From UHGV virus genome UHGV-1351068: a DNA stretch of 64,000 nt; one strand, 5' to 3'. The stretch comes from a virus. Positions 48 to 33,058 of the stretch are shown here, piece after piece. Numbering within the stretch: the first letter of the stretch is position 1; every line of letters begins with the position of its first letter. The notes under the pieces were generated by a model that was not told where the DNA came from, made no database searches, and saw only the letters and a list, made by a program, of their open reading frames with translations. A program made the position numbers and the translations under genes.

Positions 48-965
48 TTAGAGGTCGTTCAGAATATCATTCAGATCGTCATCGCCAACACTGTCACCAG
101 CATCGCCCATGATATCGTCTGCGGAACGAGAAGAGGTCGGTTTGGATTCAAAATCAGACAGGTCTTTGTCAAAGGAATCCAGGTCATCACCAATTTTATC
201 GGCTTGAGCTGCTGCTTTTGCCGCGGCACCACCAAGAGCTGCTGTACCCATAATCTGTTTAAATTTGGCTTCGTTAACTTCAAACGATTTAAACTGAGAT
301 GGAGCAACAATTTCGCTGAGGTCAGCCATATTTTCGGTCAGGAATTTCTGAGTTTCTTCATCATTGATGTTTGCAATCTCGGACTGACCAAGGAATTTAC
401 ATTCATCATAGTTCTGGAAACCACCGACTTTCTTAACTTTCATGACGAAGTTTGCACCTTCATACACACAAGTTACATCAACCGGAGTTTCACCCATATC
501 AACATCGACTTCAACCATCGCGTTGATTTTGTCCATAATTTTCTGACCGAAACGGAATTTGAATACTTTACCTTCGTTTTCTGGGTTAGCCGGGTCTTTA
601 ATAACCAGGATGTTAGACCAGAAAGAAGTTTTACGTTTCAGCAGTTTATATTCAGCTGGGTTGCTGTTATAAGAATCGTTTTTACTCAGATGAGCACAAA
701 CCGGGCAAGAATCAAAATCGCCGTGGGTAGAAGTACAATTTTCGATGTACCATTTACCGCCGTGTTTGAAACCGTGATTGATCAGTTTTACAAACGGCAG
801 AGAGTTTTCATCTTTACCAGGCAGGAAGCGAATTACTGCTTGACCATTACCAGCATTATCGGTCTTCAGTTTCCATTCGTTTTTATCTTCATTAGAGAAA
901 GAAGAACCACCTTTCAGACCAGCCAGTTGTTGTTGAAGTTGAGCAGGATTTTTACGCTTGAACAT
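48..965 (-). CDS. 32: gp32 single-stranded DNA-binding protein
   Basis: 305 aa. N-terminus [10 protein letters not shown]...[23 protein letters not shown] aligns over full length with T4 gp32 (301 aa). ATG start. Acidic C-terminal tail. Confidence 0.95.
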
Positions 966-1040
966 ATGATTACCTTTTTAATTTAACAGTTGTTGTTGCA
1001 ACATGGGTCCTTGCAACTGGACGATAGATTAATTATATAC
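966..1040 (-). promoter_or_regulatory. gene 32 mRNA 5' leader with hairpin/pseudoknot-capable element (GUCC...GUUGCAA-GGACCCAUG-UUGCAAC) plus A/U-rich tract; candidate gp32 autoregulatory translational operator
   Basis: 7-bp inverted repeat gttgcaa/ttgcaac. Loop GGAC is complementary to an upstream GUCC. Followed by a UUAAAUUAAAAAGG tract before the AUG, as in the T4 gene 32 operator architecture. Confidence 0.4.
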
Positions 1041-1695
1041 TAATTTCTTTACAAGATTTGATTATGCTAATAAAGAGTTTCTTAGCTTCAGCACCGTCAA
1101 CGTTTAAAAGTTTTTTATAAGCTTTTAATTTAGTGGAGTAATTACTCCAAACTAAGTTATCCGTTGCAGTATCATGTGTATTTATTATATCTAAAAACGA
1201 GTCAAGCATGATGAATGTCTCGAAAGATATAACGTTTGACTGAAGAAGTTTGAACACATAAGATGTTCCGACTTTCTCATTATATTCAAAAATATCATGA
1301 AGCTTATCTACATTAACTTTCTTAGCAAAGTAGTAAATATTCTTTACATCTTCAGAGAATGTAGTTTTGATTTGCTTCAACTTACCGATGTATTCACGAT
1401 AGAATATCAACGCATCAGCGTCACTGATATCACCAATCCAAGCATCTTGATTAGCTACAAGATTGCTCATGAATATCAGAGTCAATTCCTTTAGCGTATA
1501 CTTCTCGGCAAGTTTCTCAAAGAAGTATTTGTCTCTGCGCTTTTGATAAGCTTTATCAGAGACACGCATGACCCAATTATACTTAACAACATCATAACGA
1601 CCGGCAAAGTGTTGTTTGAGCATTAAATATAAAAGATAAACGCTCTTACCGTTAACGTATCTATTATTGTTTTGGGGCATGCGTAGACGAATCAT
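1033..1695 (-). CDS. 59: gp59 helicase (gp41) loading protein
   Basis: 220 aa. MIRLRMP...GKSVYLLYLMLKQH...KYNWVMRVSD...KRRDKYFF matches T4 gp59 (217 aa). ATG start. Confidence 0.9.
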   Translation of the reverse strand: MIRLRMPQNNNRYVNGKSVYLLYLMLKQHFAGRYDVVKYNWVMRVSDKAYQKRRDKYFFEKLAEKYTLKELTLIFMSNLVANQDAWIGDISDADALIFYREYIGKLKQIKTTFSEDVKNIYYFAKKVNVDKLHDIFEYNEKVGTSYVFKLLQSNVISFETFIMLDSFLDIINTHDTATDNLVWSNYSTKLKAYKKLLNVDGAEAKKLFISIIKSCKEISI

Positions 1696-1991
1696 AATAA
1701 AAAATCCAGACTATTCGTTTTATGTGTTTGACTAAATGATGGTCGAAGCATATTTTCTTCTAATGCTTCTGACATAATTTTTTCTATGATTGCAGGTGGA
1801 ATATATCTACTGAAGTTTCCCTCAGGAATAGAATTTTCTTCTAGCCATTGTGTCGTTGCCTCGAGATACCCCATTCCAAGTTCTGTTACCATAGATTCGA
1901 TAGCAAATCCATTAGCTTGCTTATCTAGCAGCTGGTTAATGGATTCGGAGGGGGATGTGTCCCCCTCATCTTTAAGCGAAAATAGAGTCAT
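1692..1991 (-). CDS. 33: gp33 late-transcription co-activator
   Basis: 99 aa in the conserved 59-33-dsbA-rnh order. MTLFSL... start and C-terminal ...LRPSF...LDFLL resemble T4 gp33. ATGA-type overlap with gene 59. Confidence 0.8.
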   Translation of the reverse strand: MTLFSLKDEGDTSPSESINQLLDKQANGFAIESMVTELGMGYLEATTQWLEENSIPEGNFSRYIPPAIIEKIMSEALEENMLRPSFSQTHKTNSLDFLL

Positions 1992-2244
1992 AAGCTTCTA
2001 CCACTTCATCTTTTTCAGTTTCAAAACGATCGCGTGTACCTTTATGGAACAGGGCAAGCAGCTGATTAAATAATTTGCCTTCTACGCCAAGTTCTTTCTT
2101 GGCGCGGTCTTTAATGTCTTTGTTAAGCTCAAGATAGCTTTCTGCTTTTAGCTTATTACCTGAGGCTTCCTTAATCATATCTCGCAGAGCCTGTCCGTGT
2201 ACTGCTTCATCAAATACTACTTGCTCTTTTTCTTTCTTAGCCAT
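1972..2244 (-). CDS. dsbA: DsbA double-stranded DNA-binding late transcription protein
   Basis: Track ORF begins with GTG. Trimmed to ATG giving MAKKEKEQVVFDEAVHG..., matching the T4 DsbA N-terminus MAKKEMVEFDEAIHG (89 aa). Confidence 0.85.
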   Translation of the reverse strand: MAKKEKEQVVFDEAVHGQALRDMIKEASGNKLKAESYLELNKDIKDRAKKELGVEGKLFNQLLALFHKGTRDRFETEKDEVVEAYDSIFA

Positions 2245-2254
2245 TATATTCACC

Positions 2255-3181
2255 TTAAAAGTTGTTTATTTCTTTCATTAATTTAGACAGACCGGATTTA
2301 ACAAAGTAGCTATAAATTTTACCACGACCCGGTAGTTGATAATTATTATAACAATCTAAAATGTTAGCAACAATGTCTTCACGGATATAATCAAAATCGA
2401 TTAACACTCGGTTTTCTAAGAAACGCTTATACTGTTCTTCGGTAAGCAAATCTTTGATGTTTTCGCCAGCATCAAGACACTCTTCAACAAACGTCATTTT
2501 CGTTGAAGGAGTACGCTCGCCATCAACATGGGTGTACCAAAAATCTGAACGAACTTTAATAGAAGCTACGTTATCTTTCTTATCACCCTTAATAATTTTA
2601 ACCATGCAATCTAAAGCAGGAGAGCCGGTTTTAGATTTCACTAATTTCTTCTGCATTGGTGACCATTGCTTAACATTAGGATACTTATGCAATTGAGTAA
2701 AGTCACCATCCGAAGAAACAATCATGACTGGATGGCCTTCGAGACTGAACTTTTTGGTCAGTACAGCAATACTATCATCAGCTTCTGCTTTATCAATATC
2801 AATGACGTAATAAGGCATATACTGCTTAAATTCATCAATTACAGTACGAAGACCTTCAAAGTAACCTTCCCAATCCCAATTTGATTCTTCGCGGGCTTTA
2901 GCACGGTTCTTTTTATAGTAGTACGCTACATCTCGGCGCCAATATCCATTAACTGCGTTATCAACACAAATGACAATTTTAGTGTACCCATCTTTCTTCC
3001 ACTTAAAAGCATTAAATTTTAAAGTAGAAAGAATAAGATGACGAACCATAGGAGTGGTTAGTTTATCTCCTTCTTTATACGTATGAAGAATTGTCGCCAT
3101 TGCGATTTGCGACAAGTCAATCAGAATGACACCTTCTTTTACTTGGTCTTCTTCGGCGAATAAGCAATTTAAATCAGACAT
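2255..3181 (-). CDS. rnh: RNase H (5'-3' exonuclease / flap endonuclease)
   Basis: Track start is TTG; trimmed to ATG (MSDLNCLF...). Strong identity to T4 RNase H: ...YYYKKNRAKAREESNWDWEGYFE...IVSSDGDFTQLHKYPNVKQWSPM...GDKKDNVASIKVRSDFW. Confidence 0.9.
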   Translation of the reverse strand: MSDLNCLFAEEDQVKEGVILIDLSQIAMATILHTYKEGDKLTTPMVRHLILSTLKFNAFKWKKDGYTKIVICVDNAVNGYWRRDVAYYYKKNRAKAREESNWDWEGYFEGLRTVIDEFKQYMPYYVIDIDKAEADDSIAVLTKKFSLEGHPVMIVSSDGDFTQLHKYPNVKQWSPMQKKLVKSKTGSPALDCMVKIIKGDKKDNVASIKVRSDFWYTHVDGERTPSTKMTFVEECLDAGENIKDLLTEEQYKRFLENRVLIDFDYIREDIVANILDCYNNYQLPGRGKIYSYFVKSGLSKLMKEINNF

Positions 3182-3213
3182 TTGAACCTCGTTCAATTAG
3201 TTAGTACAGCCAT

Positions 3214-3221
3214 TATAAATA
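3214..3221 (+). promoter_or_regulatory. T4-type late promoter TATAAATA upstream of gene 34
   Basis: Exact TATAAATA about 36 nt upstream of the gene 34 ATG (3257). SD TAGGAG lies between. Confidence 0.6.
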
Positions 3222-3256
3222 CTTCTATAATGAAGCATAACCCCATAGGAGACTCT

Positions 3257-6200
3257 ATGAGCGATTTACTGAAACAACATTTCCGTGCAACTAACGGTTT
3301 GGATGCCGGCGGAAATAAAGTTATAAATGTGGCACTCGCTGACCGCAACGTTAAAACCGACGGCGTCTCTGTCGAGTACGTTATTCAAGAAAATACTATC
3401 CAAAAATATGACCCGACGCGTGGGTATCTCACCGATTTTGCTGTGACTTATGGACGACGCATTTGGATTGCAAACAAAGATATTCCAAAACCAGCCGGAG
3501 AATTTAATCAGGCCAATTGGACTTCTTTACGTGTTGACCCGAACTGGATTTATACCGTCCGTAAAGGAGAGTTTGAAATTCAATCTGGTCAGTTCATCAA
3601 CGTTGACTCGAACGCTGCCGGTAATGCTACACTACTTCTTCCGTTAGCACCAGACGAAGGCGATACCATTGTAGTTCGTGATATTGGAGGTCGTCCTGGC
3701 TATAACGGAATCTTAATTAAAGCACAAGATACTGGTGCGTCTATCGTATTTGGTGAATCGCGTCTGCGTGAGGTAAGACTTACTCGTCCGTATTCACAAA
3801 TTATGCTTACGTTTAGTAATGGTGCATGGCGTGCTAGTTTAACCGATTTTGGCGATACTGCTAAAATGGTAGTTCCGAACGGGATTGTTCCAACCCAGGT
3901 ACAGTCAGGTGATAACGTAGTTCGTCGTTATACTTCCAACTCAGAGATTTTTATTACTCTGCCGTTGTTCGCTAATTCAAACGATATCATTAATTTTACT
4001 GACCTTGATGGTACATCGCCGATTAACCATATGACTGTGCGTACGTTTGACCCAACTATCTCAATTGGGACTCCTGGACAAACGGAAATTCAAGTACGTA
4101 CTTCAGGTAGTGGATTTTTGGTGTATGACGCTATTGACAAAATATGGCGCATCTTTGAAAATGATTTACGTACACGTGTAAGAATAATTACTTCTGACGT
4201 TACTTTAATGCCTAATGAGCATATTTCTGTATTTGGCGCAGATAATAGTACAGTTAAAACAATTAACATTACTTTACCTACTGACGTAGCTGTTGGGGAT
4301 ACTGTCAAAATCGCAATGAATTATATGCGTAAAGGACAGACAGTAGTAATTAAAGCTTCTGATGGTGATACCATCGCTAGTAATTTGAATTTACTGCAGT
4401 TTCCAAAACGCTCAGAGTATCCACCTGATGCAGCATGGGTTCAATCAAGCTCGATTACCTTTAATGGAACTACGTCATATGTTCCTGTTCTTGAGCTTGC
4501 ATATATTGAAGATAAAGCATCCGGAAAAAGCTATTGGATTGTAACTGAATCTGACCCTACTGTAGAACGTGTTGATGCTAAAGACAATACTACCAGAACA
4601 CGATTAGGTGTTATTGCTCTTGCTACGCAAGCTCAAGCCAACGCGGAGTCAAATCCAGAAAAAGAATTAGCAATTACTCCAGAAACTTTAAATGGACGTC
4701 GTTCTACTGAAACTCAGACTGGTATAGCAAGAATTGCAACTTCCGGCGAAGTTAATCAGGCAACAACTGCTTCTTACTTGGATAACGTAATCGTTACTCC
4801 TAAAAAGCTTAACGAAAGATCTGCTACTGAAACTCGTAGAGGTTTAGCTGAAATTGCGTCTAATGCTAAAATGGATGCAGGAACAGACGATTTTACAATT
4901 GTTACTCCTAAGAAGTTGCTTTATCGTACTACGTCGGATTCACGGTTAGGTGTTATTCAGTTAGTAAAAACTGGTGGTGCTCCTAACACAACTGCTGATC
5001 GTTCTTCTGCTGGCACCGGTATATTCGATCATTCTGATTACAAAAATGCAGTTACTCCAAAAACTCTTCGTGAGTATAAAGCTACTGTAAATCAGTCAGG
5101 AATAGTTTGGTTAGCAAGTGATAGCGAAGTTAGAAACGGAACTCCTGCTTCTTCAAATATTCCTACGGTTGTTACACCAGAATCTTTGCATAAAAAAGTT
5201 GCTACTGATGGAGCAATTGGTTTAATCCAAATAGCTACACAGACAGAAGTTAATGCTGGTGGCGTGACTAATAAAGCAGTTACACCTAAAACATTAAATG
5301 ACCGTACAGCAACTAACGATCGTACTGGTATTGCTCGCTTCGCGACACCTGGTGCCCAGGGTGAATTTGAAGCTGGTACTTCAAGTACAGTAATGGTAAA
5401 CCCTAAATTACTGTTCGATAAATTTGCTAATACTAGTCGTATCCAAGTTAATACTAGTTCTGGCTTAACTATTACTGGGAACCTCTGGGACCATTATACC
5501 ATCAACATACAGGAAGCAAGTACTTCTCAAAGAGGTACAACTACTCTTGCAACTGCTGCTGAGGTCAGAACCGGCACCGACGCCAAGAAAATAGTTACTG
5601 CTGCCACGTTGCACGCGAAAACAGCAACCGAAGGAGCTATCGGTCTTGCTCAGTATGCTACACAGGCGCAAGTTGATGCAGGCACATTAAGTGATAGAAT
5701 TGTTCCTCCTGCTTACTTGAAACAAACTATTCAGGTAACAGAGTCATGGCAAGCTACAGACAGCGTTAGAGGGACCGTCAGGCTATCTACAGGCGATGGA
5801 ACGTGGAAAGGTAATGATACCAATGGCTCAACTCTTCCGGATAACGGGTATGCCTCTAAGGGCGTCGCAGTGTCTCCGTATGAATTGAACCTCACGTTGA
5901 AACATTACTTGCCTCGTCTTGGTAAAGCGTATGACACCGGAATGCTAGGTGGTCAAACCCCAGACAAATATGCTCGTCGCGATATAGCGCAGACAATTTC
6001 TGGAGCTTGGACATTTAGCCAGGATACTGTGTTTAATAACAACATTTCTGTCCAGAATATTTTATACGCTAATGGTGGCGAAGTAAAAATTTCTCCAACT
6101 GCTGACACTGGAAATGCGCATGTTCGTTTTCAAAATAGAGATGGAACTGAACGCGGTATAATTTATGCAGAAACCCAAACAGCTTCAGCTGGAAATTTAA

Positions 6201-7102
6201 AAGTTCGTGTCAAAAACGGAACAGGAACTACTGCTGCAAGCCAGACCTACACATTTGGTGGAAACGGCACGCTGGATGTTCCTAATGAAGTATCAACTAA
6301 AACTCTGAGGTCTTCTGGAAATACAATAGTTGGCGGAACTGTTATGGTAAAAGATACGGTTCTATTAACTATTGAAACCCAAAATGCTATTATTGGTGCT
6401 AGGTCTCACTCTGCGTTTATTGATACTCGTGACGCTGATACGCAAATTTTTGCTCGAGATAATACTAACTCGTATCCGATTTTAACTACCAAAAACTACG
6501 CAAGATTAGCTGATGGTCGTTATGTCAAGAAAGCTGGTGATACCATGACCGGCAATCTTAACATAAATAGTTCGGCTATCGTCATTACAGGTTCTGAATC
6601 GTGGTATGTGCCGACTAATGATACTGTATTGCGACAAGGTTCTTGGACTGCTGAAATTAAAGACGCTACTAAATTGAAAGGTCTTCGTGGTTATATGGTT
6701 CCAATCAGAACACCGATTGACCCTGCTAACCCAAGCACTTTAGTAGTGACCGGATATGAAGAAAAAACTGCTGCTGGCGGTGTTTTAACTCAGGTTGGTG
6801 TAACTACAAACAACACTTATCAGCTTTGGACACCTTATCCTCCAACAACCGAAACTGCTGATAAGCGTTTCGCGCATACTGTGTGGATGAGGATTTATAA
6901 TCCAAACCTTAATAAGTTTGATGATTGGATGCGAGTATTTACATCTGCTACTCCTCCAACTGCAGCTGATATCGGAGCTCCAAGTTCAGTATCAACTCAG
7001 GTTAAAACCCTTGAAGTTTTGGAATGGATTAAGCTTGGTCCAGTTAAAATCTGGCCAGACCGTCCAAATCAAACTCTCAAATTTGAATGGGTAGGTGATT
7101 AA
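3257..7102 (+). CDS. 34: gp34 long tail fibre proximal subunit
   Basis: Start trimmed to MSDLLKQHFRATNGLDAGGNKVINVALADR..., which aligns with the T4 gp34 N-terminus MAEIKREFRAEDGLDAGGDKIINVALADR. 1281 aa versus 1289 in T4. Repeated ...TPKKL/TPETL... fibre motifs. C-terminal KFEWV(G/E)(D/E) end. Confidence 0.93.
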   Translation: MSDLLKQHFRATNGLDAGGNKVINVALADRNVKTDGVSVEYVIQENTIQKYDPTRGYLTDFAVTYGRRIWIANKDIPKPAGEFNQANWTSLRVDPNWIYTVRKGEFEIQSGQFINVDSNAAGNATLLLPLAPDEGDTIVVRDIGGRPGYNGILIKAQDTGASIVFGESRLREVRLTRPYSQIMLTFSNGAWRASLTDFGDTAKMVVPNGIVPTQVQSGDNVVRRYTSNSEIFITLPLFANSNDIINFTDLDGTSPINHMTVRTFDPTISIGTPGQTEIQVRTSGSGFLVYDAIDKIWRIFENDLRTRVRIITSDVTLMPNEHISVFGADNSTVKTINITLPTDVAVGDTVKIAMNYMRKGQTVVIKASDGDTIASNLNLLQFPKRSEYPPDAAWVQSSSITFNGTTSYVPVLELAYIEDKASGKSYWIVTESDPTVERVDAKDNTTRTRLGVIALATQAQANAESNPEKELAITPETLNGRRSTETQTGIARIATSGEVNQATTASYLDNVIVTPKKLNERSATETRRGLAEIASNAKMDAGTDDFTIVTPKKLLYRTTSDSRLGVIQLVKTGGAPNTTADRSSAGTGIFDHSDYKNAVTPKTLREYKATVNQSGIVWLASDSEVRNGTPASSNIPTVVTPESLHKKVATDGAIGLIQIATQTEVNAGGVTNKAVTPKTLNDRTATNDRTGIARFATPGAQGEFEAGTSSTVMVNPKLLFDKFANTSRIQVNTSSGLTITGNLWDHYTINIQEASTSQRGTTTLATAAEVRTGTDAKKIVTAATLHAKTATEGAIGLAQYATQAQVDAGTLSDRIVPPAYLKQTIQVTESWQATDSVRGTVRLSTGDGTWKGNDTNGSTLPDNGYASKGVAVSPYELNLTLKHYLPRLGKAYDTGMLGGQTPDKYARRDIAQTISGAWTFSQDTVFNNNISVQNILYANGGEVKISPTADTGNAHVRFQNRDGTERGIIYAETQTASAGNLKVRVKNGTGTTAASQTYTFGGNGTLDVPNEVSTKTLRSSGNTIVGGTVMVKDTVLLTIETQNAIIGARSHSAFIDTRDADTQIFARDNTNSYPILTTKNYARLADGRYVKKAGDTMTGNLNINSSAIVITGSESWYVPTNDTVLRQGSWTAEIKDATKLKGLRGYMVPIRTPIDPANPSTLVVTGYEEKTAAGGVLTQVGVTTNNTYQLWTPYPPTTETADKRFAHTVWMRIYNPNLNKFDDWMRVFTSATPPTAADIGAPSSVSTQVKTLEVLEWIKLGPVKIWPDRPNQTLKFEWVGD

Positions 7103-8235
7103 TGGCTGAACCAATTTTAATGGCAGCCTTCGGCGAGGATTTCGTGGAAACACGAATCCTCTCTGAGGCAAATTCTGTGAAGTATTGGCTAAAAGCTTAT
7201 GCTACGCATTCTAATGCTGTTCCTAATAAGCCAGAATTGAATATTAATGGTGCCTTTGATATGACCTCCTCCTTACGGAGGGGGATTAATGTCGTTCAGG
7301 TTAACGGCAATAGTTTTATTAACTTTAAAACATTTGACGTTACCACTGATGATAACAATGCTAATAACAAAGCGTTTGTAGAATATGCAAATGGATTAAC
7401 TTCAGGATTGTATATTATAATGACGCATGAACGATTTCAGTCTAGTCCGTTGATAGATAGATGGTTTAAAAACAAGTGGTCTGCTTCTTGGCCAGGTTCT
7501 GATTTTTCCAAATCATTTCCAAACTCTGCCTATGTAGGAGTGCTCGGAGCAGCAAAAGGACGCATATTAATTGAGTCATTTTACGGAAATGATGGTGTAG
7601 TCAAAGAAGATTCCAGAGCTAAAGTCGATACGGTGTATGATAACGTTGGCGATGTAGGATATACAGGCTGCCCTTATCGTTCCATTGAAGACACTAATGA
7701 GTACTCGGATTCTACTGGATATGAATATAAGCGATATCCAGTTCAAAATGAATCTATAAGCAAAATCGCTGATTATGGATTATCTCCCGGGGATTCGGTG
7801 TTTTTAGTGTGTGATATGTATGCATCTAAAAGCCTTCTTGATGCAGGTTCTACTACTAGGGCTAACTTGCGATGGTTCAAAGGTACATCTTTATTATCTT
7901 CAAGCGTATCATTAGAAATTCCAAAAAATGGAGCTGATAGATGGTTAAGATTTGAAAGATTTACCGCTGTTCCTACAGACGCTGATGGATTTACTATTGT
8001 GGTATCAAGATATCCAAAAACATCTGTTGGTGACTCTAAAATCAAAAATCTTGTATTTGTTCAAACCTCACATAGCGAAAAACTGAATAGTGTTGTTCAG
8101 GAGTTTGGCGTGAATGGTATAAGAATGAATAAAGGTGTTGAAGGAGGAACCACTATGATTATGGAACTTCCTAACTCGAAAGTTGACCCGAGTGCTGTTA
8201 TTCCAGTTCAATCATTCAGAGAAACATCAGATTAA
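7102..8235 (+). CDS. 35: gp35 long tail fibre hinge protein
   Basis: 377 aa (T4 gp35 372 aa). TAATG overlap with gene 34. Position between 34 and 36. Confidence 0.78.
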   Translation: MAEPILMAAFGEDFVETRILSEANSVKYWLKAYATHSNAVPNKPELNINGAFDMTSSLRRGINVVQVNGNSFINFKTFDVTTDDNNANNKAFVEYANGLTSGLYIIMTHERFQSSPLIDRWFKNKWSASWPGSDFSKSFPNSAYVGVLGAAKGRILIESFYGNDGVVKEDSRAKVDTVYDNVGDVGYTGCPYRSIEDTNEYSDSTGYEYKRYPVQNESISKIADYGLSPGDSVFLVCDMYASKSLLDAGSTTRANLRWFKGTSLLSSSVSLEIPKNGADRWLRFERFTAVPTDADGFTIVVSRYPKTSVGDSKIKNLVFVQTSHSEKLNSVVQEFGVNGIRMNKGVEGGTTMIMELPNSKVDPSAVIPVQSFRETSD

Positions 8236-8259
8236 GGAAGCCTTCGGGCTTCCTTTTTT
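8236..8259 (+). terminator. Rho-independent terminator (ggaagcc-ttcg-ggcttcc + T6) after gene 35
   Basis: Perfect 7-bp stem with UUCG loop followed by TTTTTT. Confidence 0.6.
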
Positions 8260-8261
8260 CG

Positions 8262-8269
8262 TATAAATA
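8262..8269 (+). promoter_or_regulatory. T4-type late promoter TATAAATA upstream of gene 36
   Basis: Exact TATAAATA about 24 nt upstream of the gene 36 ATG. Confidence 0.6.
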
Positions 8270-8292
8270 GAAAATATATAAGAGGATAAACT

Positions 8293-8943
8293 ATGGCCGA
8301 TTTAAAAGCAGGTTCAACAGTTGGCGGAAATCCTATTTGGCACGCGGGTACTTTTCCTCTTGTGCCGGCAGGAAACTCCCTAACTTATAGAGGTAAGAAG
8401 GTTTATACTGAAATAGATAAACCTCAAGCGGCAGATAACGATTTCGTATCTAAAGCTAATGGTGGCACATACACAGGCGAAGTAAAAATAGCATATGGAG
8501 CTGCTGGTAAACTGAGCATGGGGCCATTAGCAAACGTCGGTATTAGAGCTGGTGGTAGTAATGGTGAAGTTCTTATCATCGGAGGGAATTCGACAATTCA
8601 ACTGCGCGGCGGCGGAACGGAAGATTCCAGCGGCATAGTTGAAATTACTAAAAATGGTAACTTAACTGCGCAAACTGGTAGAATTACTGCTAACGTATTT
8701 ACTTCTAGGCAACAACCGTCTGGTGTAGACGATTTAACTCGCAAAGATTATGTTGATGGGCTAATAAATACTGTTAGCAGCGTAGCTAACGCCGCAGTTA
8801 AGAAAGCTGGCGACACCATGACTGGTGTACTTAGAGCCAACGCTGGCGTAGTTATAGTAAATAAAGCAACATCCGGTGAATATGCTCCTAGATTAGATCA
8901 GGTTATTTCACGCGGGGTAACAATAGATTTTGGCACATACTAA
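8293..8943 (+). CDS. 36: gp36 long tail fibre distal-proximal connector
   Basis: 216 aa. MADLKAGSTVGGNPIWHAGTFPLVPAGN...KPQAADNDFVSKANGGTY matches T4 gp36 (MADLKVGSTTGGSVIWHQGNFPL...KPQAADNDFVSKANGGTY). Confidence 0.9.
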   Translation: MADLKAGSTVGGNPIWHAGTFPLVPAGNSLTYRGKKVYTEIDKPQAADNDFVSKANGGTYTGEVKIAYGAAGKLSMGPLANVGIRAGGSNGEVLIIGGNSTIQLRGGGTEDSSGIVEITKNGNLTAQTGRITANVFTSRQQPSGVDDLTRKDYVDGLINTVSSVANAAVKKAGDTMTGVLRANAGVVIVNKATSGEYAPRLDQVISRGVTIDFGTY

Positions 8944-8952
8944 GAGGTAGCC

Positions 8953-11900
8953 ATGGCCGATCAAAACTTAAAACAAATACAATTTAAAAGAACTAGCACA
9001 GAGAATAAAGCACCTGGTGCAGATATCGTAGCCCGTGGCGAAATCGCGTTGAATACACATGGGCGTACTCTTGCCATTTACACTAAAGATGAAGCTGATA
9101 ACGTTGTTCAGCTTGCAGGTAAAGGGGTTCCTTTCTTAGATACCTCTGGCACTCTTAGCGTTGATGGAACTACTACATTAAAAGACAACGTTACTATTTC
9201 TCCGAATAAAGCGATAAATTTTGAAACTACTGATTTAAGCGGTGAAATAACTCGTCATATCGTTGGCAAATGTGCTACTAATGATGGCTGGTACATTGGT
9301 GCCGGTGGTACAAGCAACAGTGGTATTCTTGAAATCGGTACTATTGATGATGGCGCTGAAACTATTCAATTCGTACAACGCGGCGCGGGCAACGTTGAAG
9401 CCCGAAAATTGGTCTTGCTTGACGGCTCGGGTAATACGACTCTTCCTGGCGATTTAAGATTATCCACCAATAAGACTGTTAAAATTAACAGTGGAAGCAC
9501 TCTTGTTCTTGAAATGGGTGTAGGCTCTAACGACGTCTATATTAAAAACCAAAGAGGCACCGGTGTTCTTCAATTAACTAATGACAGTAATTTAACGTTC
9601 AGAAATTCACAGGTGTATTACGCTATGAGCGGAAGAGGCCCTGGTAAATCTGGTACTCTTCTGACGAATGTAGAAAACAATCGTCAGGCTTGGCAATACA
9701 CTATTTCTGCCTCAACTGCTACAACTTCGCGCTGGGTTAAAGTAGCTACAATGAAGCACCCGGGAATGGCTTCTTCACAGCTGGATTTAATGATTAGCGG
9801 TGGTATTGATTCAGGCCACGGCAAGCACTACGTTGATTTTATCACGTTATCTGGGCGAAATTTAACATCTTGGAGCACTAACAATTTAGATAACTGGGTC
9901 GAATGGCGTCGAGTTGGTTCTCCTTCTAAAACAAACGTTCCAGAGTATTACGTTGTTAAAAACGATTCTGCCACGGATGCGGATGCTTCATTTGATTTTT
10001 ACGCTAAGGTTCCTCGATACTCCAATGACCTTTATGTCACAGTACTAAACACTTCTGGGTATAATGGACAAAGTTCTGGTAGTGTAATTATCTATGAAAC
10101 TGGTCAAGACACCGGTGCTACTGGACCGTCTGGAAGTATTCTTGTTTCGATGAAACAAATTTTTGACAGTTACGCAAAACCAGATTTCGGTGATACTACC
10201 GGTACTCTTCCGGTTAACCGTGGTGGTACAGGTGCTACTAACGTAGGAGATGCCCGAAACAACCTGGGCCTTAGAACTGCGGCTGTTCGTGATGTTGGTG
10301 AATCTAGCGGAAACGTGATGGAAGTTGGTGCCTTTGGTATTGGTGGTAACGGAAAATCACTAGTAGATATTACTTCTGACGTTGATTTAATGACTCGCCT
10401 TAAGGCTCTTGGTGGTACAGTGTTCAGAGCCAACACAGCGAGTGGTTATACCGGGGCTCCTTATTACTCCCATGGCACCGGGTTTTACGGAAGAGCTTCT
10501 GACACAATGGCTGCACTTAATATAGATTATGCAACTGGTAACGTCAGAGTATTTGCTATAAACGATAGTGGTTTAGCAAGTGGAAGAGTAAATTCTAATG
10601 TTCTCTACGGCACAGCAAATAAGCCATCTAAGGCTGATGTCGGACTTGGTAATCTGACAAACGATACTCAAGTTAAGAAAGCCGGCGATACCATGACTGG
10701 TGATTTAACTGTTCCTAATTTACATGCTTCCGGCACTGGTACTGCATCAGTATATGTTAACGCAGGAAGTGGAAACGCTCATGTATGGTTTAGAACAAAC
10801 GGTAACGAACGTGGTGTAATTTGGGCAACTCCGAATACTGCTGACTTAGGTCAGATTAATATTCGTGCAAAAACTACTGGAGGCACTTCTGCTGGTGATT
10901 TTAGCTTCCGTTCTGATGGGCGCCTTGATGTTCCTGTAGCAGTTAAAGTTGGTGGTGCAGCAATGCTAACTAAAGACGGGAATATTACCTCTGGTTCGAT
11001 GTTTGGTGGTAACCTTAACAACTATTTGACTTCTATTAAAAACGATATCGTTGCTGGCGATAATAAACAAGTAAGCAAGACTGGTGACACAATGACCGGT
11101 AACTTGACTATTAACGCTAACCTAAAAGTCGAAAATCCTAATGGGACATTTGTTGATTTGGGTTCAGAGAACTCTGATAAGTATAGCAGATTAACCCTTG
11201 CTCGTAAAGTTGGCGATGGCGCTGCTGTAGCAATGCTTAAAATTACTCCTGAAGGATACGTGCAATTTGGTTATCAAACTGCAGTTACTACTCCATCTCC
11301 TACTAAGTACATCCGAGTTAAACCCGATGGCCTTGATGTAGAAGGGGATTTGTTTTTTAATCAGACATACTGCGGTACTGAAGAGGCAGTTGATATTTCT
11401 GATAAGACCATTGACCTTAATAATCTTGTCATTAAAAGAACCGATCCAGGTACTCGTCAGCTGTATAAATGTGTATCATCTGGTGGCGGTTCTAAGATAG
11501 CAAACAAACCCACATCTGATGGTAACTTTGTTCTCGAAGTTCTGTCTTTACGTAAAGTTTCTGATAACGATTGGACATGTAAGCAGACCTTTACTACAAA
11601 GAATAACACCACTGTTGGCACATATGTTCGCTATGCCCAAAATGGCTCATGGACTGCATGGGAAGAAGTTGTATCTGGTGTTCAGCCAATTAATTTAGGT
11701 GGTACTGGAGCAACTTCTGTAGCTGCTGCTCGTAACAACCTCGGTGTTGGTGAAGGCCAAACTGTAACATTCGGTAATTTAGTTACAACCGATTTAACCG
11801 CAAACGGAAACGCTAGATTAGTCGGAAGACTGAACCTTGGTTCTGCTTCTGCGACTGGCGTATTACGAGCTAATGAAACGGGTGCTGTTGTTTTAGGGTC

Positions 11901-13386
11901 TGCAAGTGGTCAAAATATCCATGTTAGAGCAGGAAGTGCCGATACTTCTGCGGGTGAAACTCGCTTTGAACCAAATGGAAACGTCACAGTTGGTGGTGCT
12001 ATTACAGCTTCCGGAAGCCTGCAAGTAAATGGCGAAGCCGCGATGAGCAGGAGCTTGATCGTTTCTCAAAACATAAAGAATACTAACGACAACAGTTTTA
12101 TTCTGATGGGAAAAGATTCTGATTTAGGCTTCGTTAAAAAATCTAACTCAGGAGCTAAACTAGTATTTGCTTCAGGAAAATCGTTTATTGTCGCTAAATC
12201 GTCAGCAACTACTATAAGTAATCCGGCTTCGGAAACTTACACCGACGTGTTTAAAGTTGATGCTGATGGAAACCAAACAGTTTATGGAAACTCAGCTGTT
12301 TCTAGGGCTTTGACTGTATCAAGCTCAGCGACAGTTAATGGCGTTATTAATGCCAACGGCGGTATTATTGTTCCTACTACTAAGTATGTGCAAATTGCCG
12401 ATGCTCCTACACAGAATAACCAAGCCACCAACAAGAAATATGTTGATGACAAGGTTGCTTCTGCTATTAGTAATGCCGGTGATACATATCTTCCATTAGC
12501 AGGTGGTACTGTAACTGGTACATTAATAGTTACAGGTAATCAACTGAAAACTACTTCTCTATGGACTACCGGAGATGCTGCTGTTAATGGTGTTTTAACT
12601 GTTGATGGAAAGGCTAGGTTTAATCAAGAGTTCAGTGTATCCACTTCTGTTAACGTTCAGAACACCGGTAATAGCCATGTGTTCTTCCGTAAAGCAGATG
12701 GTACAGAAAAAGGTCTTCTTTGGGCTGATGAGCCTGGTAATGTTAGTATAAGAGCCGGCGGTGCTTCTGGACCAGTATGGAATTTCTGGACCAGTGGTTC
12801 ATGTCAATTCCCAGGAGCCATTTCTAACTATAACGGAATTAGCAGCACTACTAATTATCCTGCAGGACAACCCAATGGCACATATAACAATACCGCTGGG
12901 TTAGTAAGCAGATTTAGTAATGGTGCTTATGCCTCTCTGTATTTCCAAGAATATGTTGGTAACTTCCACCAAGCTATCATTAATGTTAATGGATTCGGTC
13001 GAGATGACAGTTTCTATTTCAGAGCTGGCGGTGACTTCATCTGTACTCGCAATGGTTCATTTGATAACGTTGAGATTCGTTCTGACCGTAGAGCTAAATC
13101 TGATATTAAAGTTATTGAAAACGCTTTGGAAAAAGTAGAGACCTTAAGCGGTAATACTTATGAGCTTCATAATACTTCTGGCGGTACTACTCGTTCTGCT
13201 GGGTTGATTGCTCAAGAAGTTCAAGAAGTTCTTCCGGAAGCAGTTACTCAAGATATTGAAGCGGACGGCGGATTATTGCGTCTGAATTACAACTCAGTAA
13301 TTGCACTTCTTGTTGAATCTGTTAAAGAGCTTTCTGCTGAGGTTAAAGGCCTTAAAGCGGAAATTGAAGAACTTAAATCTAAATAA
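8953..13386 (+). CDS. 37: gp37 long tail fibre distal subunit, 1477 aa, with C-terminal S74-type intramolecular chaperone
   Basis: N-terminus [21 protein letters not shown]...GEIALN matches T4 gp37 ([20 protein letters not shown]...GELAIN). Much longer than T4 gp37 (1026 aa). Last about 100 aa carry the SDRRAKSDI...[10 protein letters not shown]...[17 protein letters not shown] signature of Peptidase_S74 intramolecular chaperone domains. Confidence 0.9.
   Translation: [1477 protein letters not shown]
13081..13383 (+). other. Intramolecular chaperone (Peptidase S74-like) autoproteolytic domain at the gp37 C-terminus
   Basis: Begins with the conserved S-D-x-R-x-K motif ([13 protein letters not shown]) seen at the autocleavage site of phage T5 pb1 and K1F endosialidase C-terminal chaperones. 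Coiled-coil-like end [11 protein letters not shown]. Confidence 0.7.
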
Positions 13387-13389
13387 TGC

Positions 13390-13407
13390 ATGGGGCTTCG
13401 GCCCCAT
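13390..13407. terminator. GC tetraloop hairpin (atggggc-ttcg-gccccat) right after the gene 37 stop
   Basis: 7-bp stem, UUCG loop, weak T run (cttt). Confidence 0.45.
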
Positions 13408-13422
13408 CTTTAAGGAGATATC

Positions 13423-13950
13423 ATGGCAGTAACAGGACCGTGGGTTGGCAGCTCAGCAAAAGCAACCACCGGCGAGAGATGGATGAAGGAAGCTGGAGCT
13501 AAATTAAGGTTAGGAACACCATTTTGGATGTCTAATATGATTGGACGAAATGTCTGGAACGCTAGTATAACTATTTCAGGTAATAACCCTGCGACAGGAC
13601 CTAGGGTTCGTGGTGCTTGGAAAGATAAGAACAGTGCTTCATGGAACGTATTGCTCGATGCGCGTGGGTCTTTATCAGGAATTTGGGAAACTGGGTTTAA
13701 TTTAGTTGCCTTTGGATTATCAGAGCCAAGCAAAACGACTGGTTATAATGACGCAATTGTTCTAGAAGGCAGTGGAAACTTTAACGTTAACTGGCGAGTT
13801 GATACTGAAGACGGCAATCAATTCCATTTTAATAGCTCCCGAGATTACCGAGGAAGACGCTGTTATAACTGTACAGACAACAATGCTTTTTGGAACTGGC
13901 TTTATGCTAATGATGGACGAACATTCCAGCTGTCGTTTACTGCATACTAA
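13423..13950 (+). CDS. 38: gp38-like tail fibre adhesin: T2/T6-type N-terminal gp37-attachment domain with a non-canonical Trp-rich C-terminal domain lacking glycine-rich repeats
   Basis: 175 aa with SD AAGGAG. N-terminus MAVTGPWVGSSAKATTGERWMKEAGAKLRLGTPFWMS matches the conserved T2-type gp38 N-terminus (MAVVGVPGWIG.SAV.ETGQRWM...LRLG.P.WMS). The C-terminal two-thirds have no poly-Gly GRM motifs. Confidence 0.6.
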   Translation: MAVTGPWVGSSAKATTGERWMKEAGAKLRLGTPFWMSNMIGRNVWNASITISGNNPATGPRVRGAWKDKNSASWNVLLDARGSLSGIWETGFNLVAFGLSEPSKTTGYNDAIVLEGSGNFNVNWRVDTEDGNQFHFNSSRDYRGRRCYNCTDNNAFWNWLYANDGRTFQLSFTAY

Positions 13951-13994: not shown

Positions 13995-14651
13995 ATGGCA
14001 AGCAAACAATCAATACCATTTTTTGATATGTTTCTTGGGTTGCTCGAGCTATTGTTCAAAGATGGAGCCACGGGAAGAGTTCTCTTTTCCCGTGTTTTTG
14101 TTGTCATACTTTTAGCATTGTTGGCGTTTGCTGGTTATAAGTCAGATAGTCTTATTACTGCTTACGTCGATAGTACATATGACAAGTATGATAAACTGGT
14201 TCAAAAGGATAGGGATACCCGATTTGATAATACAGCACTCGAACAACTCCAGATAGTACATATCTCAAGTGGTGCAGATTTTTCTGCGGTCTTTACGTTC
14301 AGACCTAAAAACTTGAACTACTTCGTAGACTTAATTGCTTATGAGGGGACTTTACCTAGCACGGTAGATTCTAAAAACCTGGGAGGATATCCAATCGACA
14401 AAACGTCTGCTGAATATAGCACGCATTTATCGGGTAGATATTTTTGGACGGATAAGGAATTTGTTTTCTTACCAACAAAAAGAAAACCGCCTGAAATATC
14501 GTACATGTTTAGCTGTCCGTATTTCAATTTAGACAATGTTTATGCTGGAACTGTTGAAATGTACTGGTACAATTCCAAACCTGCATTATCTAACGAAAGA
14601 CTAACATCGATATGTGGTCAGGCGGTTAGAGCTCTTGGAAGAGCTAAGTGA
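13995..14651 (+). CDS. t: Holin t
   Basis: 218 aa, same as T4 T. ...LELLFKDGATGRVL...ALEQLQIVHISSGADFSAVFTFRPKNLNYFVDLIAYEG...YMFSCPYFNLDNVYAGT near-identical to T4 holin. Confidence 0.93.
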   Translation: MASKQSIPFFDMFLGLLELLFKDGATGRVLFSRVFVVILLALLAFAGYKSDSLITAYVDSTYDKYDKLVQKDRDTRFDNTALEQLQIVHISSGADFSAVFTFRPKNLNYFVDLIAYEGTLPSTVDSKNLGGYPIDKTSAEYSTHLSGRYFWTDKEFVFLPTKRKPPEISYMFSCPYFNLDNVYAGTVEMYWYNSKPALSNERLTSICGQAVRALGRAK

Positions 14652-31169: not shown

Positions 31170-31381
31170 ACAATCTCCATATATTCTGGGCCATCAACTG
31201 TAATTACACGAGCAAAGGTACGAACCGGGACGATATCGCCGTGATTAGCGAATACATACAACCAAGTCCAATGCTCTTCTTTACCGAAGGTTTTCTCTTT
31301 CTGAACGACGATTAAGTCTGGGTTGAACAGAATGTCTTCAAAAGCTTCAGCAGTAATTTTTACGGTGTTTTCAGTTTTCAT
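31166..31381 (-). CDS. hypothetical protein (71 aa)
   Basis: ATG start directly downstream of early promoter 31405-31438. Confidence 0.45.
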   Translation of the reverse strand: MKTENTVKITAEAFEDILFNPDLIVVQKEKTFGKEEHWTWLYVFANHGDIVPVRTFARVITVDGPEYMEIV

Positions 31382-31404
31382 GTTATTCTCCTCAGTAGTT
31401 GATA

Positions 31405-31438
31405 AGATAATAGTACCACATCCTTGTGATAAGTAAAC
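31405..31438 (-). promoter_or_regulatory. Early promoter (GTTTAC ... TGGTACTATTATC)
   Basis: Repeated family member. Confidence 0.45.
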
Positions 31439-31444
31439 AACTTT

Positions 31445-31885
31445 TTAAACTAAACCTGGATTTTGTGATTCTGACACTTCTACGTCTTCCTTTGGAAGGA
31501 CCGCAAAGTTCCCCTGAAAAACTACGTTTACTAAGGTTTTATCATCTTCTTCCCACTCATCAGTGACAAGAACATTTTTGCCTTGACTTAGATTTTTTGC
31601 CGGATTTTTTGGGTCTTTGGATTGAGTGACAACGTTTTTAAGGGTTTTAACACGAACCCACTTACGTTCAAAGCTTTCTTTAACATTGTTAGTGTCTTTA
31701 AACTTCAAATATTTTGCAGGAACTACAAATTTTTCTAAGCAATGAATATAATCACCAGAATCAGAATGAATTTTATAACCTGCTTTACCATCATTACGAT
31801 TAGCAACTTTAACGATCACACCAGTATGACCAACCCACTTGCCGCCAGTAACTTCTACAGCATCGCCTACAATCAAATTTTTCAT
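31445..31885 (-). CDS. hypothetical protein with KOW-like N-terminal motif (146 aa)
   Basis: IVGDAVEVTGGKWVGHTGVIVKV resembles a KOW/SH3-like beta motif. No further assignment. Confidence 0.45.
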   Translation of the reverse strand: MKNLIVGDAVEVTGGKWVGHTGVIVKVANRNDGKAGYKIHSDSGDYIHCLEKFVVPAKYLKFKDTNNVKESFERKWVRVKTLKNVVTQSKDPKNPAKNLSQGKNVLVTDEWEEDDKTLVNVVFQGNFAVLPKEDVEVSESQNPGLV

Positions 31886-31942
31886 CGTGTTTCTCTCAGT
31901 TTGTTAATGTAGAGCCATTATATAACGGCTCTTTCATAAAGT

Positions 31943-32116
31943 AAATAGTTATCGGTGAGAAATTTCGCATCCAACATCGACGCCGAACAGATACCCAGCT
32001 TCCCACCCTTTAGCCATCATAGCCTTGGCCACCAGAACCATCGTTGGAGAGATTTCCGGGAGGATTTCCCGGTTGAACCACTCTTCGAAGTTTTCATCGA
32101 ACTCAAACTCTTCCAT
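31943..32116 (-). CDS. small acidic hypothetical protein (57 aa; dexA.1 position)
   Basis: Not in the track. ATG overlaps the dexA stop (TAATG). MEEFEFDENFEEWFNREILPE... Confidence 0.3.
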
Positions 32117-32805
32117 TAGCCACGCCCCTTAGGTAAACTCAGTGGATCGGTATCTTCTGGACTTGGTGCTTCGCTTAGGCCTAGAGCATAGCGTTGAGCA
32201 TATTTAAGCATTAGAATATCTTTGGCACAGTCATGGATACTATCATGCGCGATAAATCCATCGAGCGTACCCTTTGGAAGAGGGGTAGTTGTCAGCCCAC
32301 GAGTCAGAAGCAGCGATTCAATTGCAGTACGAATGTCACGCTGATTCCAGAACTTGCATGGTTCTTCTTTAAATGTATCAATTTCTTCTTCGGAAATTCC
32401 TTGGGCTCGTTGAACATCGCGAAGACAATCAACAAAAATCGGAAAGTCAAAGCTCTGCCCACGACACCAGCCAAAGGAATCCCATGGGTGAATTCCATTA
32501 TCAATCAGATATTGCTGGGCTTCTTTAATTCCAGCAATTACTGATAAATCGTCTGGCGTTGAGGCCAGGTTAGCCCGGGCTTCAGCTGATTGTTTCTTCC
32601 ACCAATCAAGAGTAGACTTACCAAACAACCGATGACCTTTCTGGGATTTAAGGTCAAACTTAATACGATGACCACGCTTGACCAATTCATCGAAGCTTTC
32701 CAGAACTTCAGGGTCAGAATCAAAGGTGATTAGTGCAAGGTCAATCACGGAAGAGCTTGACACATTTCCGAATGTTTCAAAATCAATAATAAAGTCTTTA
32801 GCCAT
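32116..32805 (-). CDS. dexA: DexA exonuclease A (DEDDh 3'-5' exonuclease)
   Basis: 229 aa (T4 227). Exo I motif IIDFETFG. Position between dda and the 39 region. Confidence 0.85.
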   Translation of the reverse strand: MAKDFIIDFETFGNVSSSSVIDLALITFDSDPEVLESFDELVKRGHRIKFDLKSQKGHRLFGKSTLDWWKKQSAEARANLASTPDDLSVIAGIKEAQQYLIDNGIHPWDSFGWCRGQSFDFPIFVDCLRDVQRAQGISEEEIDTFKEEPCKFWNQRDIRTAIESLLLTRGLTTTPLPKGTLDGFIAHDSIHDCAKDILMLKYAQRYALGLSEAPSPEDTDPLSLPKGRG

Positions 32806-33052
32806 TTTGAGCCTCTAGCATAAATTTAATTTCGCGTAACTGGCAACCAATATATTCGCTCAGATACACCTTTGGGTCATATCCTGTAAACCAAGTGATA
32901 GCATTAGCGTTATCTGCTATATCACGAAGCTCATTCAGAACTGTATCAATTTTAATGTTAATAGCACGCTTAACGTTATCTGGTGCTTCAAACTTAGATT
33001 CTTGTAAGCCAACAATCATTGTTTGAAGGTCTTCTAATTTCAATTCAAACAT
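32798..33052 (-). CDS. hypothetical protein (84 aa; dda.1 position)
   Basis: Between dda and dexA. Overlaps the dexA start. Confidence 0.45.
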   Translation of the reverse strand: MFELKLEDLQTMIVGLQESKFEAPDNVKRAINIKIDTVLNELRDIADNANAITWFTGYDPKVYLSEYIGCQLREIKFMLEAQNG

Positions 33053-33058
33053 ATTACC

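Follow-up and report, generated by a model that had tools for sequence, protein, structure and literature searches.

We describe here the distal end of the long tail fiber locus in the viral genome UHGV-1351068, of which a 64,000-nt stretch was analyzed (hereafter, the window; all coordinates are positions in it). The subject is a pair of adjacent genes on the + strand: g37, which encodes the large fiber protein gp37, and the gp38-like 175-aa open reading frame (ORF) that follows it. Cleavage and docking of their products are discussed below by comparison with homologs. The features of the pair are as follows:

8953–13386, + strand: g37, encoding gp37 (1477 aa); stop codon at 13384–13386
8953–13080, + strand: predicted mature gp37 distal half-fiber (aa 1–1376), with the cleavage position taken from the alignment with phage S16
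13081–13383, + strand: gp37 C-terminal intramolecular chaperone (IMC; Peptidase_S74), aa 1377–1477, from matches to Pfam and 6F45_A
13423–13950, + strand: gp38-like ORF (175 aa), starting 36 nt downstream of g37; stop codon at 13948–13950
13423–13557, + strand: N-terminal gp37-attachment domain of gp38 (Gp38_N), aa 1–45, with conserved Trp7, Trp20 and Trp35
13558–13947, + strand: RB43-type C-terminal specificity domain of gp38, aa 46–175, from homology to RB43 gp38
13714–13752, + strand: gp38 loop G98–D110, which includes K104, the counterpart of RB43 host-range residue Q100 in the alignment

The C-terminus of gp37 gives a full-length match to the Peptidase_S74 family (PF13884), which spans aa 1377–1432 with an E-value of 4.3e-15 and a score of 56.2 bits (cutoff, 22; profile positions 1–58 of 58). 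The same end of the protein matches chain A of PDB entry 6F45, the gp37–gp38 complex of phage S16, with an E-value of 1.5e-13. The SDRRAKSDI motif begins at S1377 (position 13081), giving an IMC of 101 aa. In S74 chaperones the catalytic dyad consists of the scissile serine and a lysine five residues later (S1264/K1269 in T5, S578/K583 in MYRF), and cleavage depends on correct folding of the trimer (PMC4690869, PMC3742443); the corresponding pair in gp37 is Ser1377 (13081–13083) and Lys1382 (13096–13098). In an alignment of the window gp37 with the gp37 of T6 and both S74 fibers of RB43, the segment I-R-S-D-x-[RK]-x-K is invariant. Alignment to the S16 sequence DLNVS^SDRRIKK, in which ^ marks the cut, places the predicted cleavage site at R1376–S1377, so that the mature protein would end in …FDNVEIR1376. 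The IMC occupies the extreme C-terminus and ends in a segment predicted to be helical (aa ~1446–1476; AlphaFold2 [AF2] predicted local distance difference test [pLDDT] 71–87). A single-sequence AF2 model of aa 1296–1477 has a mean pLDDT of 43, with the last helix alone confident, and was not used for fold searching. One might suppose that this S74 domain is a non-cleaving relic, such that gp37 stays at full length and the IMC occludes the tip, leaving gp38 unable to dock. We consider this very improbable in light of the complete profile match, the invariance of the catalytic Ser and Lys together with their flanking residues, and the conservation of the IMC, whose sequence is 100% identical between the window and the line of the Klebsiella phage vB_Kte_K65PH164 (hereafter K65PH164; see below) and has accumulated no mutations there.

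The 175-aa ORF opens with the attachment domain of a T2-type gp38. Gp38_N matches aa 1–40 across its whole profile, with an E-value of 5.9e-24 and 84 bits (cutoff, 25), aa 1–44 match chain D of 6F45 (E 2.4e-7), and W7, W20 and W35 are all present; tryptophan “prongs” of gp38 have been described previously (PMC7917993). Over their full lengths, PHROGs assigns the 175-aa protein to phrog_1121 (“tail fiber adhesin”) and gp37 to phrog_10316 (“tail fiber protein”). The original prediction had located an S74-type chaperone in the last ~100 aa of a 1477-aa gp37 and a T2-type gp38 attachment domain in the next ORF, and on both counts it is borne out.

Beyond the attachment domain, the protein departs from the gp38 of T6. 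Pfam finds no match in it to PF05268, the polyglycine (glycine-rich motif/hypervariable segment, GRM/HVS) domain for which T6 gp38 scores 238 bits; its C-domain contains 10% Gly; and comparison of the C-domain with that of T6 gp38 yields an hhalign value of 0.3% (at most 0.5% for any subgroup of the family), which together place the protein outside the GRM subtype. Homology extends instead along RB43 gp38, with 35% identity over aa 1–169 by BLASTP (E 8e-23) and an hhalign value of 99.9% for a profile built from a 17-member family of the 175-aa protein. Within the family the two domains behave very differently: Mean column entropy is 0.48 bits in the nearly invariant N-domain and 1.4–2.2 bits in the hypervariable C-domain, and many natural relatives are >90% identical up to window position ~13553 (gp38 aa ~44) and divergent beyond it, a pattern that marks the specificity domain as a module exchanged between phages.

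The arrangement of an S74 fiber followed by a Gp38_N adhesin is by no means peculiar to the window. In T6, a classical T2-type phage, the 994-aa gp37 carries S74 at aa 882–940 (E 6.6e-10), and the next gene encodes a gp38 with both Gp38_N and PF05268 (GP38). RB43 has a gp37 with S74 (E 4e-16) and then a 174-aa Gp38_N protein; Miro (Slopekvirus) has S74 at gp37 aa 1175–1230 and then a 175-aa Gp38_N protein; and the Serratia phage CHI14 (Winklervirus) has one S74 gp37 followed by two tandem short Gp38_N proteins (5001–6203 of the compared stretch). The pair is also found in SSU5, a non-T4-like plasmid-prophage (1260-aa S74 fiber, then a 178-aa Gp38_N protein; 219–4537 of the compared stretch), and in POCJ13 of the Sepvirinae (collagen-repeat fiber with S74, then a 181-aa Gp38_N protein; 1904–4546 of the compared stretch). 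Counting S16, which enters through PDB entry 6F45, the pairing holds in 7/7 other loci at which a Gp38_N ORF directly follows a fiber gene, and K65PH164, which is near-identical to the window, has the same gene layout. T4 served as the negative control: Its gp37 has Collar/Phage_fiber domains and no S74, and its gp38 has no Gp38_N. The S74-fiber and short-adhesin pair behaves as a mobile two-gene module. In both SSU5 and POCJ13, moreover, the pair is followed at a short distance by a gene for Cor superinfection exclusion.

Published work describes the same arrangement and its mechanism. The gp37 of T2 and T6 is cleaved and then capped by gp38 (PMC3157838), autocleavage of the S16 IMC exposes the gp38 docking surface (PMC7917993), and IMC cleavage with gp38 capping has been stated explicitly for T2, T6 and S16 (bioRxiv 10.64898/2026.05.12.724579). 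For RB43, a 174-aa ORF was reported beside a T6-like g37; homology to T6 gp38 covers its first ~50 aa, and the C-terminus is unrelated (Trojet et al. 2011, PMC3157838). In a 2026 paper (PMC13611949), Miro gp37 T958–V1171 and the 175-aa adhesin were modeled with AlphaFold3 as “another variant of gp38”; the gp37 segment modeled there stops just before the S74 domain that we find at 1175. RB43 also offers a side observation, in that its 742-aa “gene 36” ORF (31275–33503) likewise ends in Peptidase_S74 (aa 645–701). The last ~290 aa of that product are 33% identical to the window gp37 tip, compared with 29% for RB43 gp37, and the presence of a second S74 fiber fits the duplication of g37 to which Trojet et al. 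drew attention.

At first sight, the locus could be taken for a new hybrid in which a self-cleaving chaperone of the T5/K1F type has been joined to a T2-type adhesin and which fits neither the T4 nor the T2 paradigm. The original prediction proposed exactly this, on the premise that T2-type phages lack an IMC. Both domains are truly present and T4 has neither, so that the locus does look unusual when T4 is the sole reference. The T6 control nevertheless refutes the premise and the proposal alike, since S74 lies directly upstream of the Gp38_N+GP38 adhesin in that phage and 6F45 contains both elements; with the same combination in RB43, Miro, CHI14, SSU5 and POCJ13, and with cleavage followed by capping already in the literature as the T2/T6/S16 mechanism, the T2 paradigm already consists of an IMC with a docked gp38, and “hybrid” is not the right term. 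We give the idea of a new hybrid next to no credence. What survives of the proposal is its suggested order of events, autoprocessing of the fiber and then docking of a separate adhesin, which agrees with the published mechanism. The locus is very probably a standard non-T4 (“T2-type”) long-tail-fiber tip, in its RB43-type variant, in a Jiaodavirus-like Klebsiella phage. Its architecture, the T2 paradigm with an RB43-type adhesin, is already known, and its lineage has already been sequenced: From end to end, the 5-kb region shares 95% identity with K65PH164 (Jiaodavirus), and it shares 93% with the ValerieMcCarty phages; of the 250 phage records that match it, 232 are Klebsiella phages. ValerieMcCarty04 encodes a protein 100% identical to the 175-aa product, and for the Kpn6N protein the identity is 99%. 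With near-identical loci and an identical adhesin in GenBank, this exact architecture has been deposited many times. The actual difference from T2 is the short RB43-type adhesin without a glycine-rich domain, itself described in 2011, and our understanding of T-even fiber assembly is not changed by this locus.

The assignment is carried by what the sequences show directly: the domains of the two proteins, conservation of the catalytic dyad, synteny, the relationship of the adhesin to RB43 gp38 and the repeated occurrence of the same gene pair in other phages. Several points weigh against it. For this phage in particular, we infer cleavage, docking, stoichiometry and adhesin function by analogy with homologs (S16, T2 and RB43). 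The likeness to RB43 is only moderate when the C-domain is compared alone (window group against RB43, hhalign 50%, E 1.6e-4, 117 collinear columns). In a network of five sequence subgroups plus RB43, from which the N-domain had been removed, the window group (G1) is joined to G5 at 94% and to the Miro group at 68%, G5 to G2 at 71%, and G2 and G4 to RB43 at 98% and 97%, respectively; the relation of the window C-domain to RB43 draws its support mainly from transitive links. Evolved host-range variants of K65PH164, considered further below, carry no mutations in the IMC or in gp38. Finally, labels vary among the database records of close relatives, from “tail fiber adhesin” and “chaperone of endosialidase” (for gp37) to “distal long tail fiber assembly catalyst”; the last is used in the ValerieMcCarty, KP182 and KP185 records (OR271596, OR354874/5, OM337876/7), and near-identical proteins have been called assembly catalysts and distant homologs of T4 gp38 in print (PMC9960720).

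If these names were right, the 175-aa protein would be a non-structural assembly chaperone similar to T4 gp38 or lambda Tfa rather than a virion adhesin, a possibility with which its length (T4 gp38 has 183 aa), its position in the same genomic slot and the absence of gp38 mutations from the K65PH164 experiment are all compatible. We nonetheless think it quite unlikely. Comparison of the protein with T4 gp38 detects no similarity (hhalign 0.2%, BLASTP E 0.21), on which grounds we rejected it as a T4 gp38 homolog, and Pfam matches no Tfa-type domain in it. Its N-terminus is the structurally characterized gp37-attachment domain of a virion adhesin, its C-domain is hypervariable as expected of a receptor binder, host-range mutations fall in its RB43 homolog, and gp37 carries a built-in chaperone of its own. 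Because similarity to T4 gp38 is lacking, we regard the “assembly catalyst” label as an annotation carried over from gene position, and hence as a recurrent database error, through which identical proteins bear a T4 gp38-like name without being related to T4 gp38.

Taking the locus as a T2-type tip of the RB43 variety, assembly would proceed in four steps. Three gp37 chains would trimerize with the C-terminal 101-aa IMC as a guide. Once the triple β-helix is correctly folded, the Ser1377/Lys1382 dyad would cut between R1376 and S1377 and release the IMC. The new C-terminal end of gp37 would then become the dock for the 45-aa N-terminal domain of gp38, with tryptophans W7, W20 and W35 inserted into pockets of gp37. 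Last, the variable 130-aa C-terminal β-sandwich of gp38 would form the outermost part of the fiber and act there as the adhesin that binds the receptor.

Comparison with characterized systems clarifies which parts of this scheme are shared. The closest parallel is RB43, where a gp37 ending in Peptidase_S74 is likewise followed by a protein of ~175 aa, with a T6-like attachment domain in its first ~45–50 aa and a non-glycine-rich C-domain, and then by the holin gene t; homology runs along the full length of gp38. The two differ in that the window gp38 C-domain is strongly diverged, the window gp37 has 1477 aa against 812 aa in RB43, RB43 has a duplicated S74 fiber gene, and the host is Klebsiella as opposed to E. 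coli. With S16 (PDB 6F45; Dunne et al. 2018) the window shares the SDRRxK cleavage motif (DLNVS^SDRRIKK in S16, NVEIR^SDRRAKS in the window), and with S16, T2 and T6 the Gp38_N attachment domain with its conserved tryptophans and the gene order g36-g37-g38-t. However, the gp38 proteins of those phages have ~250–265 aa and a PF05268 polyglycine (GRM/HVS) domain that is missing from the window gp38, and the window gp37 sequence before the IMC is not alignable to that of S16. The locus is near-identical in the Jiaodavirus phages K65PH164, ValerieMcCarty01/04/05 and Kpn6N. Miro has the same combination of an S74 gp37 and a 175-aa Gp38_N adhesin, but the C-domain of its adhesin belongs to a different sequence subgroup, and BLAST aligns aa 1–67 only. 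T4 shares the genomic slot and synteny, and the N-terminal ~120 aa of its gp37 are homologous; unlike the window, it has a Collar/needle receptor-binding tip without S74, and its gp38 is an assembly chaperone without Gp38_N. Finally, T5 pb1 and the K1F endosialidase have in common with the window gp37 the Peptidase_S74 family, the Ser/Lys(+5) dyad and the C-terminal helix. In those two proteins the mature C-terminus itself binds the receptor or is enzymatic, whereas in this phage, as in T2, the end left by cleavage would provide the dock for a separate adhesin.

The implications for host range are where the evidence divides. The original prediction expected the tip to bear directly on host range; genetics in RB43 supports this, and the evolution of K65PH164 does not. 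In the former (RB42/RB43), every host-range mutant changes Q100 in the gp38 C-domain (Trojet et al. 2011, PMC3157838). By our reading of the alignment, Q100 corresponds to K104 of the window, within a loop (G98–D110) that lies between two predicted strands and is indel-rich in the family. In the latter, we compared six evolved host-range variants of K65PH164 (evo1, 2, 7, 8, 9 and 10) with their ancestor over a 17-kb locus. Within the tail-fiber locus (4150–10434 of the K65PH164 stretch), all substitutions fall in the gp37 shaft between aa 94 and 1197 or are gp35 S218F. The gp37 changes include N210S, N358I, T495K, S548Y, G659D, G844D, E934K, T939R, N951K, D997Y and R1197Q, among others; recurrent among the variants are gp35 S218F and gp37 D94N, N210S, S548Y, G659D, E934K and D997Y, scattered along the shaft. 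This location agrees with the summary given by the authors of the preprint on these variants. With gp38 free of mutations, gp38 was not the host-range-changing element in that experiment.

These observations raise the possibility of a two-tiered recognition, in which, on these capsulated hosts, strain and capsule-type host range would be set chiefly by the long mosaic shaft of gp37, whereas gp38 at the tip would bind a secondary receptor that is conserved and would add little to differences in host range. Besides the placement of the evolved changes, the divergence between the window and K65PH164 fits such a scheme, with 52 aa differences in gp37 and only 2 in gp38. Set against it are the wholesale swaps of the gp38 C-domain after aa ~44 among natural Jiaodavirus and Slopekvirus phages, which imply selection on the tip too, the RB43 genetics, which point to gp38, and the failure of Pfam to detect any carbohydrate-binding or enzymatic domain in gp37. 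We hold two-tiered recognition to be a plausible contender that falls short of probable. An equally tentative suggestion is that short-term adaptation across capsule types proceeds via the gp37 shaft, with wholesale swaps of the gp38 C-domain marking longer-term divergence. Klebsiella T-even phages are therapy candidates, and the T2-type reading of the locus makes their receptor-binding tip a protein of its own, 175 aa long and swappable, which docks on a gp37 end produced by self-processing. Host-range engineering should accordingly target the C-domain of gp38, which starts at aa ~45, and, in view of the K65PH164 results, the gp37 shaft as well.

The shaft itself is a mosaic. Likeness to T4 gp37 is confined to aa 6–120 and 608–654, identity to the gp37 of the Slopekvirus Miro is 60%–84%, and aa 415–557 match the solved tail fiber 7Z47_D. 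The preprint on K65PH164 speaks of a “triple-helix Dpo domain”; we did not adopt a depolymerase or other enzymatic reading of gp37, as Pfam returns no enzymatic domain. We also observed two copies of the motif GGTGATxVxxARNNLG in this protein, at aa 424–439 (10222–10269) and aa 916–931 (11698–11745), each time after a globular-looking, non-fibrous stretch (~aa 250–420 and 760–910). This suggests two inserted knob-like modules, which would explain much of the extra length of this gp37 relative to those of T4 and T6.

For gp38, AF2 with the 17-sequence alignment predicts aa 44–175 as a β-sandwich with one helix (aa 153–162; pLDDT about 80–92). In the monomer model the N-terminal 41 aa are unstructured, as expected if this segment folds onto gp37. 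The predicted fold of the C-domain has no match in the PDB, and a search of BFVD returned only small uncharacterized proteins of other T4-like phages, such as the Vibrio phages VH7D and River4. The RB43-type C-domain, having no solved structural relative, is a real structural gap, but one within a known protein type. An exhaustive search with the C-domain alone yielded, beyond close relatives, large proteins with 4–10 matched stretches. The two best of these, P0031 and P0032, have SprB repeats of the Bacteroidetes type and match a 36-aa segment of gp38, GLSEPSKTTGYNDAIVLEGSGNFNVNWRVDTEDGNQ (aa 98–133; 13714–13821), which is 42% identical to each of their units. Homology of the C-domain to SprB was rejected, as the E-values (1e-14 and 7e-13) are inflated by this one segment matching every repeat and the 175-aa protein gives no SprB hit in Pfam; the likeness probably reflects a shared β-hairpin motif.

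Around the pair, the tail fiber module contains the following further features:

3182–7102, + strand: g34 (1306 aa as listed in the ORF map)
7102–8235, + strand: g35 (377 aa)
8262–8269, + strand: T4-type late-promoter motif TATAAATA, 24 nt upstream of g36
8293–8943, + strand: g36, encoding gp36 (216 aa), the hinge/distal connector of the long tail fiber (Pfam Phage_T4_gp36; phrog_1425)
13390–13407, + strand: intercistronic hairpin between g37 and g38, AUGGGGC-UUCG-GCCCCAU, with a 7-bp stem and UUCG tetraloop
13412–13417, + strand: Shine-Dalgarno sequence AAGGAG, 5 nt upstream of the g38 ATG, by direct reading of the sequence
13995–14651, + strand: holin t (218 aa; Pfam Phage_holin_T, E 1.8e-72), the end of the tail fiber module

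Holin t closes the tail fiber module in T4, T6 and RB43 as well. The TATAAATA motif at 8262 likely marks the start of a late g36-g37-g38 transcript. Its count in the whole window, 3 against 5.1 expected, is not above chance, so that position is what supports the call. The hairpin between g37 and g38 has a centroid energy of −12.9 kcal/mol with a z-score of only −1.9 and is followed by no T-run on the + strand, and we do not claim a terminator there; in the Miro record a “terminator” is annotated at the equivalent position. A second UUCG-tetraloop hairpin (8234–8255), with a 9-bp stem followed by TTTTCG, is terminator-like; it comes directly after the g35 stop codon and immediately precedes the motif at 8262. 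A further TATAAATA late-promoter motif is located at 3214–3221, inside the listed g34 ORF with its TTG start at 3182, from which the true g34 start is probably a downstream ATG at 3230 or 3257 (GGAGA precedes 3257). Such a start would fit the 1290- and 1281-aa annotations of the K65PH164 records.

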